DNA of 64,000 nucleotides from Escherichia coli. GTDB lineage: Bacteria > Pseudomonadota > Gammaproteobacteria > Enterobacterales > Enterobacteriaceae. Below, piece after piece: positions 8,011 through 59,127 of this stretch. Numbering within the stretch: the stretch's first letter is position 1; each line of letters begins with the position of its first letter. The notes beneath the pieces were generated by a model. The model was not told where the DNA came from, did not search any database, and saw only the letters and a list, made by a program, of their open reading frames with translations. The DNA is taken from assembly GCF_030013205.1 (NCBI RefSeq), contig NZ_CP122648.1, one strand, 5' to 3'. A program made the position numbers and the translations under genes.

Positions 8011-8047
8011 ATGTCGGATGCGACGTAAAAGCCTTATCCGACTTACT
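8011..8047. repeat. REP (repetitive extragenic palindromic) element between convergent rhtB and rhtC
   Basis: gtcggatgcgacgtaaaagccttatccgac matches the E. coli REP pattern. Confidence 0.6.
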
Positions 8048-8065
8048 CTGATGACGCGTCTGGCA

Positions 8066-13155: not shown

Positions 13156-13465
13156 AAAATAAATATATTCTGAAAAAATATGCCGACTCTTGCATGAGAG
13201 TGGGCATATTGCCATGCTGACAGGAGACTCACATAAGGAAAGGCAGAATTTCCAGACGTCGTTGTATATTTTCATTTGCTTTAATAAATTTCATTTTTAG
13301 TAAATTCAGCATTATGTTATTAGCGATGAGCAAGACCAATCATTAACCAAGCTCTCTTCAGAATGTAATGAAAAATGTGAAGTGCATTTCTTTTTTAAAA
13401 TTTTTTTACCCTATTATTTCTTATCAAATTAACATTGCCCTTAATTATAAGAAAGGAGAATATAA

Positions 13466-14314
13466 ATGAACAACATATTAGGCTCATCAATTAATATGCC
13501 CTGTACACTTTTCGAAACTATTACTTTATTCGATGATTTTTCTGCTGATGATATGCAATATGGGGATATGGAAGAACAAGATTTTCTCTCACTCGGCTTA
13601 AGCGACATCTCTGCAAAAGTTGATCCTTACCGCCTCATTAAATACCATTTTCCTGGGCCGAATTCTACTTATGGTGCTTTTAGTGTTCCAACTTCCGGAA
13701 CAAAAATATCACAAAGTGAATGTATTGATATTTTATTTGCAGAAATGAAAGATCTGGCAAAAATGTTTTCCTTTTTTGGACAATACAAAACACTCATCCA
13801 GGATCTGATTGATCATTTTAGATATGGAAATGGCAACAGTTTCCATAGCCAGGAATTGAACTTATCTTTTCATGAACGAATAAACAAATATGATTATAAT
13901 AGCCCAATACGTGTAATCAAAGAATGTATCGAAAATAATATTTCTTCAACACCTACGATAGGATACCGGCCTCTTCTCCTACAAAAGATTAAGATCGAAT
14001 TACTTTCATCAAGACTAAATAAATTCAATGATTTTAAAGATAATTTTAATGGCCTGGGAATCAGCATTCATGATATCTCAGCTCAAAAAATCTCTCTTTT
14101 AAATTTTCAAAAATATCCTATGGGCTGGAGCGCTACCATTCATTTCATAGCACAAGACCACTTTGGTTTGGATGTAACTGATATAAAAAACAAGACTTAC
14201 AGCAAATATAGATTTTTTCGCATATGGTTCTTTTTACAACGGCATAAAGACTTTGCTTTCAAACCTTTTTTCACCAATTTTAACACTATCGAAAGAATCG
14301 AAAATTATCTATGA
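13466..14314 (+). CDS. hypothetical soluble 282-aa protein, no signal peptide; accessory, AT-rich
   Basis: Clean ORF in visibly AT-rich DNA; Lys/Asn/Ile-rich AT-type codon usage; stop overlaps next start (ATGA at 14311-14314); may be DUF3289-like, from memory only. Confidence 0.6.
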   Translation: MNNILGSSINMPCTLFETITLFDDFSADDMQYGDMEEQDFLSLGLSDISAKVDPYRLIKYHFPGPNSTYGAFSVPTSGTKISQSECIDILFAEMKDLAKMFSFFGQYKTLIQDLIDHFRYGNGNSFHSQELNLSFHERINKYDYNSPIRVIKECIENNISSTPTIGYRPLLLQKIKIELLSSRLNKFNDFKDNFNGLGISIHDISAQKISLLNFQKYPMGWSATIHFIAQDHFGLDVTDIKNKTYSKYRFFRIWFFLQRHKDFAFKPFFTNFNTIERIENYL

Positions 14315-14802
14315 AAAGTAAACTCCAGAAAATTATATTATGTTTATTTCTTCTATGCTGCATCTATAATTTATGGACATTGCGTCCTGTACAGATTTTG
14401 TATACATACTCTGATGCTGGCAATTCAGTCTTTCTGGTCGTTGATCATCTGCCATGGACTGACAGCGATAAAATAAATTGGTATCTGAAGCATCAGAATG
14501 AAATTAAAAATCAACATCCCCTACCAGAAGGTAGTTGGCATACCTGGTATGTCATTGATATCGGTAATGGCTTCACTGACTATAAAAAATATATCGAAGG
14601 GCCGTATGAAGATCTCTACTGTTTCCCGACAATTAAGAGCAATGATAATTGCATCGTGAAAAATTACTTAATGGTTATTAATGAATACCCTTATCGTAAC
14701 ACTCATATTGGTATTAACGATTTTACTGAGTATCAATTAACACAAGAAAATAAAATAGAGCGAGTTTTCAATCCGCATGACTTTAAAAAAGACAATTTTT
14801 AG
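14311..14802 (+). CDS. hypothetical 163-aa protein with N-terminal membrane anchor or signal (KIILCLFLLCCIYNLW); candidate periplasmic partner or immunity protein
   Basis: Translationally coupled to upstream ORF; one N-terminal hydrophobic segment then soluble domain; may be DUF943-like, from memory only. Confidence 0.6.
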   Translation: MKSKLQKIILCLFLLCCIYNLWTLRPVQILYTYSDAGNSVFLVVDHLPWTDSDKINWYLKHQNEIKNQHPLPEGSWHTWYVIDIGNGFTDYKKYIEGPYEDLYCFPTIKSNDNCIVKNYLMVINEYPYRNTHIGINDFTEYQLTQENKIERVFNPHDFKKDNF

Positions 14803-14807
14803 AAATA

Positions 14808-14838
14808 AGCCGGATAAAAAATAGCTTTATCCGGCACT
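14808..14838. terminator. hairpin between convergent cassette and corA (gccggataaaaaatagctttatccggc)
   Basis: Perfect 10-bp stem read directly; sits between two convergent stop codons. Confidence 0.5.
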
Positions 14839-14842
14839 CATA

Positions 14843-16927: not shown

Positions 16928-17009
16928 GCATTGTACACTCGAGGAGGCCAGACAAACTGGGACTGGCTACACAGCTGGAAAATCATCAGATAAATGAAGG
17001 GAAACAAAA

Positions 17010-17912
17010 ATGAAAAAAACGCTCGCAACGTTATTTTTATTAACGTGTCTGGGATCATCATCCGCCTATGCGGATAACGCTTTGATTTTACAAACTGATT
17101 TTAGCCTGAAAGATGGTGCCGTCTCGGCGATGAAAGGGGTCGCATTCGGCGTTGACCATAATCTTAAAATCTTTGATTTAACACACGAAATTCCACCGTA
17201 TAACATCTGGGAAGGCGCTTATCGCCTGTATCAGACTGCCAGTTACTGGCCGCAAGGTTCGGTGTTTGTTAGCGTGGTCGATCCGGGCGTAGGCACTGAC
17301 CGTAAATCGGTAGTGCTGAAAACCAAAAACGGTCAATACTTCGTTTCACCAGATAACGGTACGCTCACTTTGGTGGCACAAACTCTGGGTATTGATAGCG
17401 TCCGGGAAATCGACGAAAAAGCTAACCGCCTGAAAGGTTCTGAAAAGTCATATACCTTCCATGGTCGCGATGTATATGCCTACACTGGTGCGCGTCTGGC
17501 TTCCGGAGCGATTACGTTCGAACAGGTGGGGCCAGAGCTTCCTGCAAAAGTTGTCGAACTTTCTTATCAGAAAGCAAAAGCAACAAAAGGTGAAGTGAAG
17601 GGCAATATCCCGATTCTCGATATTCAGTACGGCAACGTCTGGAGCAATATCAGCGACGAGTTGCTGAATCAGGCAGGAATCAAACTCAACGACACGTTGT
17701 GTGTGACCATTTCCGAAGGTTCCCAGCAAAAATACGCAGGGAAAATGCCGTATGTCGCAAGCTTCGGCGATGTGCCGGAAGGCCAGCCGATGGTGTATCT
17801 GAACAGCTTATTGAATGTTTCCGTGGCGCTGAATATGGATAATTTTGCGCAGAAACATCAGGTTGCGTCTGGTGCTGACTGGAATATTGATGTGAAGAAG
17901 TGCGCTAAGTAA
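17010..17912 (+). CDS. DUF62-family protein (SAM hydroxide adenosyltransferase / fluorinase-chlorinase fold) with Sec signal peptide
   Basis: 300 aa; signal MKKTLATLFLLTCLGSSSAYA; blocks LILQTDF, VVDPGVGTDRKSVVL, YFVSPDNGTL, DIQYGNVWSNI and VYLNS parallel the DUF62/fluorinase family as I recall it. Confidence 0.65.
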   Translation: MKKTLATLFLLTCLGSSSAYADNALILQTDFSLKDGAVSAMKGVAFGVDHNLKIFDLTHEIPPYNIWEGAYRLYQTASYWPQGSVFVSVVDPGVGTDRKSVVLKTKNGQYFVSPDNGTLTLVAQTLGIDSVREIDEKANRLKGSEKSYTFHGRDVYAYTGARLASGAITFEQVGPELPAKVVELSYQKAKATKGEVKGNIPILDIQYGNVWSNISDELLNQAGIKLNDTLCVTISEGSQQKYAGKMPYVASFGDVPEGQPMVYLNSLLNVSVALNMDNFAQKHQVASGADWNIDVKKCAK

Positions 17913-17956
17913 GGTGCTGATGCGGAATGCGGTGTGGCGCACCGCATCCCGCAACG

Positions 17957-20119: not shown

Positions 20120-20177
20120 TGGCACCGCCGCGTAAAAATAGGTTGGGCGGAGAAGCGCAACGCCCTCCGCCAAAAAG

Positions 20178-24366: not shown

Positions 24367-24405
24367 GATTGCATGCCGGATAAGCCTCGCTTTCCGGCAC
24401 GCTCA

Positions 24406-33800: not shown

Positions 33801-33832
33801 TGCCGGATGCGGCGTGAACGCCTTATCCGGCA
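33801..33832. repeat. REP element between aslA and aslB
   Basis: tgccggatgcggcgtgaacgccttatccggca is a canonical REP. Confidence 0.7.
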
Positions 33833-33845
33833 ATCAACCGCAGGC

Positions 33846-33870
33846 GGCCACAAAATGGCCGCTTTTTTTA
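33846..33870 (+). terminator. rho-independent terminator after aslA (gcggccacaaaatggccgc + T7)
   Basis: Hairpin followed by T run read directly. Confidence 0.6.
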
Positions 33871-35686: not shown

Positions 35687-35788
35687 TTAGCGCCGTTGCG
35701 GGGGTGGATAATACGGACTTCCCACCCCTCTGTCTAGTCCCTTTTTAAATAAATTGCGCGTTTGGTTACGGTTTGTGCGTTTTGCTGC

Positions 35789-42919: not shown

Positions 42920-43594
42920 TCACCTGTATAACCAGTACGCGGTGCTTTCTACATTCGCACCACTTTGTATGTATCGTTTAAGCGCGGCGGTGTTGCCCAT
43001 CTGGGTCGCCACCCGCAAAGTTGTTTTACCGCGAGCATACGCCCAGTTTAGCGCCGTTTGCATCAGCTCAGCACCTGCACCGCGTCCAGCCAGCAGGCCA
43101 ATTCGCGCATCTGTCGCATTGAGTTCCCGTAAAGAGACATAGCCGCGAATAGCGCCGGACGCCGCACGTAAAATCAGACATTGATGATCAAAGGTGCCGC
43201 GCACGGCATTTTCAATCCACTGTGCATAAAAGCGACCGCTGGCGTCAGGCGCATACCACGGCGCACGAAAACGGCTTTGCGCAAATGCGGCGCTGGCTAA
43301 CTGACGTAATGCGGGAATATCTGTCTCTTGTGCCACTTCTGCGCCGCTATCACCGACATTGTTCACGGGTAGCGCCAAATCAACTTCACCTTCTACCAGG
43401 GAGAATCCCAGCTGTTGCAGGGCATCCAGTTCACCCGTATTTGATGCCGCAATTTTGGCCTGCACCCGTGACCACGGCGCTAACGCGTCTGGCGTCAGGA
43501 GCGGTGCTTCAGACGTAATGCGCACAATGGCGCTGTTAACACCAAAGAAGGCGTTTTCCCAGGTTAGTGGCTCAATACTGGCGCGGACGGGCAT
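42920..43594 (-). CDS. wecD: TDP-fucosamine N-acetyltransferase (GNAT)
   Basis: 224 aa; GNAT-type motif region [19 protein letters not shown]. Confidence 0.85.
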
Positions 43595-43634
43595 TGTGTG
43601 ACTCCCTCAAAACAGTCATTCACGGTAATCAGTA

Positions 43635-53405: not shown

Positions 53406-53440
53406 GTGCCGGATGCGATGCTGACGCATCTTTTCCGGCC
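53406..53440. repeat. REP element between convergent gppA and rep
   Basis: gtgccggatgcgatgctgacgcatcttttccggcc is REP-like. Confidence 0.6.
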
Positions 53441-53444
53441 TTGA

Positions 53445-55683: not shown

Positions 55684-56133
55684 GTGGCGATTAATTTCAG
55701 CCCCAAGGTTGGTGAAATACTGGAATGCAACTTTGGTAACTATCCTGTTAGCCAGAATGGACAGTTCAGCACGACGTATTACGATGGCCGCATTCCACCT
55801 GAGATGATAAAAAATAGGTTGGTTGTCGTGCTCAACGGAAAAATTAATGGCAACGCATGTATCGTCGTTCCATTATCAACCACTCGCGACCATGACAAGT
55901 TAAATCGTGGAATGCATGTTGAAATAGCCAGTAATGTTATCAATGACCTGCAATTCTTTGATCAGCAGATACGTTGGGCTAAAGCCGACCTGGTACAACA
56001 AGTCAGTCGAAACCGATTAAACAGAGCAAGGACTTATCGGGGGTATCTTAATCAATGTTTGCCACATGAGTTGGTTGCAGACATACAGAGGGCAGTCATC
56101 AAGTCAATCAATGCCATATCGCTCATAAATTGA
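55684..56133 (+). CDS. yifN: PemK/MazF-fold protein (toxin-like), no adjacent antitoxin ORF
   Basis: GTG start 8 nt after AGGAG; motif RLVVVLNGKINGNACIVVPLSTT resembles the MazF/PemK core; same position as K-12 yifN. Confidence 0.55.
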   Translation: MAINFSPKVGEILECNFGNYPVSQNGQFSTTYYDGRIPPEMIKNRLVVVLNGKINGNACIVVPLSTTRDHDKLNRGMHVEIASNVINDLQFFDQQIRWAKADLVQQVSRNRLNRARTYRGYLNQCLPHELVADIQRAVIKSINAISLIN

Positions 56134-58236: not shown

Positions 58237-59127
58237 TTGGATTTACGCGATCTGAAAACCTTCCTGCATCTGGCGGAAAGCCGCCATTTTGGCCGTAGCG
58301 CGCGAGCAATGCACGTTAGCCCGTCTACGCTTTCGCGACAAATACAGCGCCTGGAAGAAGATCTCGGTCAGCCGCTGTTTGTGCGTGATAACCGCACGGT
58401 AACGCTGACGGAAGCGGGCGAAGAACTGCGCGTTTTCGCCCAGCAAACGCTGTTGCAATATCAGCAATTGCGTCACACCATCGATCAGCAAGGGCCGTCG
58501 CTCTCTGGCGAATTACATATCTTCTGCTCGGTGACCGCTGCCTACAGCCATCTGCCGCCGATTCTGGATCGCTTCCGCGCGGAACACCCGTCAGTGGAGA
58601 TCAAACTCACTACCGGTGATGCGGCCGATGCGATGGAAAAGGTGGTCACTGGCGAAGCGGATCTGGCGATTGCGGGGAAACCGGAAACCTTACCCGGCGC
58701 AGTGGCGTTTTCGATGCTGGAGAATCTGGCGGTGGTGCTGATTGCTCCCGCGCTGCCCTGCCCGGTGCGTAATCAGGTATCTGTCGAAAAGCCCGACTGG
58801 TCTACAGTGCCGTTTATCATGGCCGATCAGGGACCGGTACGCCGCCGCATTGAACTGTGGTTTCGGCGTAACAAAATCAGCAACCCAATGATTTACGCCA
58901 CGGTTGGCGGGCATGAAGCGATGGTATCGATGGTGGCGCTCGGCTGTGGCGTGGCGCTGTTGCCGGAAGTGGTGCTGGATAACAGCCCGGAACCGGTGCG
59001 TAACCGCGTGATGATTTTAGAGCGCAGTGATGAAAAAACGCCGTTTGAGCTGGGCGTGTGTGCGCAAAAAAAGCGGCTGCATGAGCCGCTGATTGAGGCA
59101 TTCTGGAAGATTTTGCCGAACCACTAA
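58237..59127 (+). CDS. ilvY: LysR-family activator of ilvC
   Basis: Likely TTG start at 58237 giving [31 protein letters not shown] track extends further upstream. Confidence 0.85.

Follow-up and report, generated by a model that had tools for sequence, protein, structure and literature searches.

Solitary REP elements at three convergent gene junctions of an Escherichia coli chromosomal segment: a catalogued feature that marks strains rather than species

Introduction

REPs, the repetitive extragenic palindromes or palindromic units, have been known since the 1980s. The gap between rhtB and rhtC in the E. coli chromosome studied here raises the question of whether the palindrome lying in it, along with similar ones at other gene junctions, belongs to this family and, if so, what its presence can tell about the junction, the strain and the species. 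The DNA analysed, referred to below as the window, is a 64-kb stretch which corresponds to the E. coli chromosome from metE to ilvG and is reversed with respect to the K-12 orientation. The first-pass annotation of the window had proposed REP-type palindromes between rhtB and rhtC, aslA and aslB, and gppA and rep, and with some reservation a partial one between cyaY and cyaA. It had described them as an ordinary E. coli feature which marks convergent junctions and is useful as a strain and species marker, and had named a formal REP model as the test by which it could be refuted. The genes at the four junctions were correctly named, and at each junction they converge:

rhtB, + strand, stop codon 8002-8004; rhtC, - strand, from 8066 (stop codon 8066-8068)
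cyaY, + strand, to 24366; cyaA, - strand, from 24406
aslA, + strand, to 33765; aslB, - strand, from 33868
gppA, + strand, stop codon 53396-53398; rep, - strand, stop codon 53445-53447

The closest genome is that of the swine isolate K_EC180 (NZ_CP062203.1), which is near-identical to the whole window and differs from it by two homopolymer lengths and one mismatch and by nothing else. The length changes are in C runs at 35728 and 56248 and the substitution is at 61287; the run-length changes could be a sequencing or assembly artefact.

Materials and Methods

The training set consisted of 49 REP units collected with nhmmer from eight unrelated 50-kb pieces of K-12 DNA (400 kb in total). A covariance model, R1, was built from the alignment of these units and the whole window was scanned with the filters off. 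It should be noted here that the Z1 and Z2 labels of this alignment are swapped relative to PMC8266576, in which z1 denotes the 29-nt unit and z2 the 37-nt unit. K-12 loci are referred to by the EcoCyc REP names used in a 2026 preprint (Harris et al. 2026); REP285 and REP287 have no entry in its supplement, and these two numbers are inferred.

Results

A formal REP model recognises three sites in the window

The alignment of the 49 K-12 units recovered the three known REP classes together with a 12-bp interrupted helix. In this helix 95.9% of the cells are paired, none of 500 shuffles reached the observed score, and clear between-class covariation was seen at two stem positions. The scan with R1 gave exactly three significant matches in the window:

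33802-33831, + strand, aslA/aslB unit, 42.7 bits, E 1e-10
8012-8046, + strand, rhtB/rhtC unit, 36.6 bits, E 7.9e-9
53407-53443, + strand, gppA/rep unit, 25.4 bits, E 2.4e-5

R1 scores in K-12 DNA are bimodal, with true units at ~24-61 bits and the rest at <=17.7 bits. A score of 17.7 bits on the - strand of the window is a reverse echo of the 33802-33831 unit, and the best further match in the window reached 13.6 bits (E 0.11). This last match is a GC-rich hairpin at 20142-20172 between yigB and uvrD, conserved in K-12, which is probably not a REP but a terminator or attenuator in front of uvrD. An ungapped consensus (Hamming) scan returned the same three sites, against 0.4 matches per shuffle. 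Rfam gave no match at any of the sites, and the K-12 RefSeq annotation contains no repeat_region or REP features.

The three palindromes are genuine members of the REP family. They lie within 1-3 nt of the positions first assigned to them, and the model that had been named beforehand as the refuting test accepted all three (25.4-42.7 bits). Each of them folds into a stem-loop with the conserved internal mismatch, each is extragenic and placed at gene 3' ends, and the family to which they belong is dispersed over the genome in many copies, with ~55 units per 400 kb of K-12 DNA. The GTAG tetranucleotide is absent from all three sites, where the tags are GTAA, GATT and CAAG, and none of them forms a BIME, as R1 finds one unit per locus in the window. 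Loss of GTAG touches the mobility of the units and not the sequence-based definition of a REP, because K-12 loci have been catalogued with the same tags.

The rhtB/rhtC unit keeps its outer stem and has a damaged inner stem

The sequence at 8012-8046 is a single Y-type REP unit and the orthologue of K-12 REP289. Its outer stem is GTCGGAT/ATCCGAC, a sub-family that is also present among the K-12 units, and its tag is GTAA (8043-8046, reverse complement) instead of GTAG, the same tag as in K-12 REP289. Compared to K-12, the unit carries two strain-specific substitutions in the inner stem, G>A and C>A, which break two pairs and are not compensated, so that in this strain the outer stem is kept and the inner stem is damaged. 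The hairpin energy is -11.4/-14.3 kcal/mol as against -19.6/-18.9 in K-12, a loss of 5-8 kcal/mol, and the R1 score is 36.6 bits as against 48.9 for the K-12 allele. The exact 99-nt allele of this junction was found in 24 of the 5,426 complete genomes. Because of the two substitutions the RNA may shift towards a different structure. In the fold of the whole gap (8012-8065, + strand) the weakened 5' arm of the REP pairs with CGCGUCUGGCA beside the rhtC stop codon. On the rhtC strand the unit is followed by AUUAUUUUU, which is a weak partial match to a U tract. In K-12 the rhtC/rhtB unit is listed as REP289 and also as a bidirectional terminator (Harris et al. 2026, supplement).

The gppA/rep unit is nearly universal in E. 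coli

A single 37-nt REP unit (53407-53443) fills most of the 46-bp gap between gppA and rep and is the orthologue of K-12 REP286, with which it is identical. Its outer stem has 6 bp and its inner stem (GATGC/GCATC) 5 bp, with a 3x3 internal loop between them, and it carries the tag CAAG (53440-43, reverse complement) instead of GTAG. Its 25.4 bits are close to the lowest scores seen for REPs; the hairpin is stable, with an energy of -18 to -21.6 kcal/mol and z of -4.6 to -5.7. Of the 5,426 complete genomes 5,417 (99.8%) have the unit, and its core recurs in the K-12 aslA/aslB element, in the left of the two units there. K-12 REP286 is labelled 'Convergent' and overlaps an in-vitro Rho site (Harris et al. 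2026, supplement).

The aslA/aslB junction exists in several architectures

Between aslA and aslB there is a single canonical Y-type REP unit (33801-33835, + strand), in which 30 nt agree with the Y consensus at every position. It folds into the canonical 9 + 4 bp stem with a GC/TT mismatch (-23.8 kcal/mol). GTAG is missing from it, the 3' flank AATC being GATT (33832-35) on the reverse complement. In a megablast search with the unit as query, which required an exact word of 28 nt, the median number of places hit per genome was still 14. A further feature lies just downstream of the unit and separate from it:

33842-33864, + strand, intrinsic terminator of aslA, a 9-bp stem followed by a T run (terminator scan and fold)

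The K-12 sequence differs at the position of this terminator. In K-12, CFT073, EDL933 and strain 1409 the junction is occupied by a two-unit BIME with a BIME-1-type linker, and in these four strains the unit at the aslB flank scores 60 bits on the other strand; the unit of the window is inverted relative to the unit at the same flank in K-12, CFT073 and EDL933. The linker of the K-12 BIME matches the IHF-type linker of BIME-1, and the window allele has neither the linker nor the second unit. In place of the two-unit, BIME-1-like element of K-12 there is thus a single Y unit in the window; its left flank is different and a strong terminator is added. The K-12 element is probably REP287, a number taken from the numbering order.

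Strain Dog168 has a hybrid single hairpin at this junction, which is explained by a deletion between copies of the direct repeat CGCATC. A comparable origin of the window unit, by simple deletion between the two K-12 units, was considered and rejected, because such a deletion would leave the core of the left unit (GCGATGCTGACGCATC), as in Dog168, and it is the Y core that is present in the window. In AR_0019 (NZ_CP024889.1, 3083333-3084236) most of aslA has been deleted along with the left REP unit and the aslB-side unit remains; a deletion of this kind is apparently present in many genomes (~9/30 evenly spaced rows). Altogether at least four architectures of the junction occur across E. coli. 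At least 80% of the window's junction was covered in 2,325 of the 5,426 genomes, a rough guide to allele frequency as the identity bands are confounded by partial matches.

Position of the REPs with respect to gene orientation

Of the 65 gene junctions in the window 44 are tandem, 11 convergent and 10 divergent, and the three REPs are without exception in convergent gaps. By a simple estimate the chance of this is 0.005 from the number of junctions, (11/65)^3, or 0.0014 from the number of intergenic bases, (592/5338)^3. A REP is present at only three of the 11 convergent junctions, and the remaining ones have ordinary hairpins or overlapping genes. In the K-12 sample the REP loci were convergent in 15 cases, tandem in 10 and divergent in one. 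This is in line with the 2026 preprint, which places ~60% of REPs at convergent, ~40% at tandem and ~1% at divergent junctions, and finds a REP in 207 of 704 convergent pairs (~30%) (Harris et al.). The idea that REPs mark convergent junctions therefore holds in the sense that every REP of the window is at one (3/3), and does not hold in the sense that every convergent junction is marked (3/11). It is a true description of the window and is overstated as a rule.

REP content distinguishes strains and not species

In the same region of K-12, R1 finds units at five junctions, namely rep/gpp, uvrD/yigE, rhtC/rhtB, aslB/aslA and ilvA/ilvY. The orthologues with EcoCyc names are REP286 (rep/gpp), REP289 (rhtC/rhtB) and REP288 (uvrD/yigE) (Harris et al. 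2026), and the K-12 counterparts of the window REPs, i.e. REP286, REP289 and the aslB/aslA BIME, have the same flanking genes and positions. The window REPs are an already known and catalogued feature, and their description as ordinary was borne out, since orthologues of REP286 and REP289 are named in a published table. A further K-12 locus, REP290 (metE/ysgA), gave no R1 match in K-12 at E <=0.5, and the window DNA beyond metE differs.

Three K-12 REP loci of the region are without an R1-scoring REP in the window. At ilvA/ilvY a 58-bp K-12 segment that contains the REP is missing, and ilvY and ilvA overlap by 4 nt (CTAA, 59124-59127); in K-12 this segment holds a short-type REP of 28.5 bits and lengthens ilvY by one codon. 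At uvrD/yigE the K-12 BIME has been replaced by a gene of the SAM-hydrolase family and a near-perfect palindrome. The several aslA/aslB architectures, the rhtB/rhtC allele found in 24 of 5,426 genomes and the loss of K-12 REP loci all support the proposed use as a strain marker. REP content is thus strongly strain-specific, and these junctions are suited to typing and lineage assignment.

The proposed use as a species marker fails, because the exact consensus occurs in other Enterobacteriaceae. The exact 34-nt Y consensus was found in E. albertii, E. whittamii, Citrobacter and Pseudocitrobacter, and in E. albertii and E. whittamii it occurs many times. The exact REP consensus was also seen on very short, ~1x-coverage contigs labelled Desulfosporosinus, Alkalicoccobacillus, Collinsella and Bacteroidales; its presence in the assemblies so labelled is most likely E. 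coli contamination. The practical value of the window REPs is therefore that of a strain marker only; they are poor for species assignment and carry little biological weight. For annotators it follows that REP positions are not expected to transfer between E. coli strains.

REP-like hairpins below the threshold of the model

Apart from the three REPs, the window has three hairpins which resemble REPs in one respect or another:

24374-24399, between cyaY and cyaA, REP-arm hairpin, read on the - strand as TGCCGGA-AAGCGAGG-CTTATCCGGC
14805-14836, - strand, REP-arm hairpin downstream of corA in the gap to the DUF943 gene, TGCCGGATAAAGC..TTTTTTATCCGGC and then TTATTT
17918-17952, between the SAM-hydrolase-family gene and uvrD, near-perfect palindrome, fold -23.5/-26.9 kcal/mol

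The REP-arm pattern TGCCGGA..TTATCCGGC has three matches in the window as against 0.00 expected. In the cyaY/cyaA hairpin both REP arms are exact, the asymmetric TTAT included; it is stable (-18 to -23 kcal/mol, z -4.0 to -5.6), is identical in K-12 and is in the 26-27-nt length class of short units. It scored 9.5 bits with R1 (E 2.1), short of membership in the REP model, and the table for K-12 gives it as a bidirectional terminator and assigns it no REP name (Harris et al. 2026, supplement). The cautious suggestion of a partial REP at this place was right about the palindrome and was not upheld as to membership of the family. With 9.5 bits under the full model the hairpin is REP-like and not demonstrably a REP; it may be a relic of a short-type REP.

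The corA-proximal hairpin, which was missing from the first-pass annotation, also has exact arms (R1 12.0 bits, E 0.35; -15 kcal/mol, z ~-5). The terminator at this place in K-12 is unrelated to it. Probably the hairpin terminates corA and came with the YPO3983/DUF943 segment, which is strain-specific. One half of the palindrome at 17918-17952 is homologous to the uvrD-proximal unit of the K-12 BIME REP288. The palindrome itself was not among the R1 matches up to E 10, as against 35.6 bits for the K-12 unit, and it looks like a 'corrected' version of that unit. The adjacent gene, of the SAM hydrolase/halogenase family, separates yigE from uvrD in the interval 16928-17956; in K-12 nothing but the two-unit BIME REP288 is found between these two genes.

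Discussion

Relation to known palindromic elements

The window units resemble the REP/BIME family of Enterobacteriaceae (classes y, z1 and z2; Ton-Hoang 2012; Corneloup 2021, PMC8266576) in being imperfect palindromes of 30-37 nt with an internal mismatch, in their location at gene 3' ends, in their high copy number and in the class-specific covarying stem positions. They differ from it in the absence of GTAG and of BIME pairing at all three loci. With the REPIN/RAYT system of Pseudomonas (Bertels and Rainey 2011, PMC3116915) they have in common that they are short extragenic palindromes thought to go back to an element mobilised by a transposase. REPINs, however, are inverted doublets of species-specific sequence, whereas the window units are single, tag-less and fixed. 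There is also a likeness to the 306 bidirectional terminators used by Harris et al. (2026), in which one hairpin in a short convergent gap serves both transcripts. Unlike these, the REP hairpins mostly have no flanking U and A tracts, and the terminator scan was silent on them.

A proposed role at the 3' ends of transcripts

Our data very probably describe solitary REPs that are local copies of K-12 loci, immobile relics of formerly mobile units which would now act as RNA hairpins at 3' ends. The functional steps proposed for this strain are all inferred from K-12. The E. coli TnpA-REP cannot bind or cleave without GTAG, and no mutation of GTAG is tolerated (PMC8266576). As GTAG is missing from the three REPs, they are most likely immobile; binding and cleavage of the three units by TnpA-REP (RAYT) would be predicted to give a negative result, and the units would no longer be substrates of this enzyme and would be fixed relics instead of mobile copies. 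No RAYT gene is present among the window's genes.

Transcription would place each REP in the 3' untranslated end of one of the flanking mRNAs or of both, where the RNA hairpin could block 3'-to-5' exonucleases. It could also be playing the role of a partial terminator, Rho-dependent or bidirectional, and in this way limit read-through into the opposing gene. The cyaY/cyaA hairpin could act in the same way as a bidirectional terminator, though it is not assignable to the REP family. REPs have been described as combined terminators and stabilisers, and convergent pairs that bear a REP are expressed more highly (2026 preprint). A simple scan for intrinsic terminators called no REP hairpin in the window, only the separate one at 33842-33864, and the terminator role therefore rests on literature tables for K-12.

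An effect on translation can be considered as well. The distance from stop codon to stem is 8 nt for rhtB, 9 nt for gppA, 5 nt for rep and 36 nt for aslA. PMC12306157 gives a stop-codon distance of <16 nt as the limit for REP-induced ribosome stalling and translational down-regulation. A modest damping of the translation of rhtB, gppA and rep is possible, since their hairpins are within this limit. With two of the three REPs within the reported distance, rhtB, gppA and rep are testable cases.

Other explanations of the three units

It could be argued that the units are neutral relics, decaying copies of elements once mobile, which are harmless in convergent gaps and have no role in termination, stability or translation. 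Their presence varies by strain (ilvA/ilvY missing, uvrD/yigE replaced, aslA/aslB in at least four architectures), no GTAG tags are left, and the rhtB/rhtC unit has two non-compensated inner-stem substitutions; the loss of stability in this unit and the missing ilvA/ilvY REP suggest weak or no selection on single copies. In the same direction, a figure legend of the 2026 preprint states that across the genome mRNA half-life is not affected by REPs. Against this, REP286 is kept in 99.8% of genomes, the stems of REP sub-families are maintained by paired changes, mapped bidirectional terminators or Rho sites lie at the positions of the K-12 orthologues, and the preprint finds convergent pairs with REPs to be more highly expressed. 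Neutrality of all three units is an unlikely explanation, though one to be taken seriously. Continuing mobility under a RAYT, with the differences between strains as the product of ongoing transposition, is very improbable. Such activity would go with a REP content that differs sharply from K-12 over the same 60 kb and with the opposite orientation of the aslA/aslB unit to its K-12 counterpart; it does not go with three singletons and no inverted pairs, with units none of which has the GTAG essential for the E. coli enzyme (PMC8266576), with a Dog168 allele that is explained by deletion at the CGCATC direct repeat, or with a REP286 that is fixed across the species.

That the three palindromes are ordinary terminator hairpins, whose likeness to REPs is fortuitous or due to convergence towards a GC-rich stem, is hardly credible with E values of 1e-10 to 2e-5 at the three main sites and one exact consensus 30-mer. 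This explanation finds some support at the two weak hairpins only. Their scores (cyaY/cyaA 9.5 bits, corA 12 bits) are within the noise, cyaY:cyaA is listed as a terminator without a REP name, and the corA hairpin is followed by a T-rich tail; yet even these weak hairpins carry 16 exact arm bases, the asymmetric TTAT among them, where 0.00 are expected. A role at the level of DNA, in which the units organise the chromosome as sites for gyrase, DNA polymerase I, IHF or HU, has been proposed historically, and the IHF-type linker of the K-12 aslB/aslA BIME would fit it. The window allele of aslA/aslB has lost both this linker and the second unit, all three loci are single units, and no nucleoid compaction or REP-REP contacts were found in the 2026 preprint, which makes such a role improbable for the units described here. 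Solitary, immobile REPs acting as 3'-end RNA hairpins, as proposed above, are the reading that we prefer.

Possible remodelling of REPs in place

The Y unit of the window, an exact inversion of the one at this flank in K-12, CFT073 and EDL933, the Dog168 hybrid produced by a deletion between units and the near-perfect palindrome beside uvrD together raise the speculation that the aslA/aslB gap is a hot spot at which REP quasi-palindromes are remodelled without a transposase, by hairpin-templated strand switching at replication. We regard this as a doubtful proposal. If it were true, strand switching would flip or 'correct' REPs, and the face of the asymmetric hairpin presented to each of the two convergent transcripts would change with it. 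The only thread of the present analysis with some novelty, and that of a mild kind, is the inversion and remodelling in place of REPs at aslA/aslB and uvrD.

Additional features of the window

A few other differences from K-12 were observed in the window. At 43594-43633 rffG and rffH are missing from the enterobacterial common antigen cluster; 1,944 bp of K-12 DNA between wecC and rffC are absent, the gap between these two genes is 40 bp, and K_EC180 has the same arrangement. A YPO3983-family gene and a DUF943 gene take up positions 13240-14842, where K-12 has yigF and yigG. Next to metE, at 1-1251, there are tssD, a gene for the type VI secretion tube, and two small hypothetical genes, in DNA that is unlike the ysgA/udp region of K-12. 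Between rep and ppiC the window has an intact toxin gene of the PemK/MazF family (55684-56133), and the corresponding place in K-12 is occupied by the pseudogene yifN.
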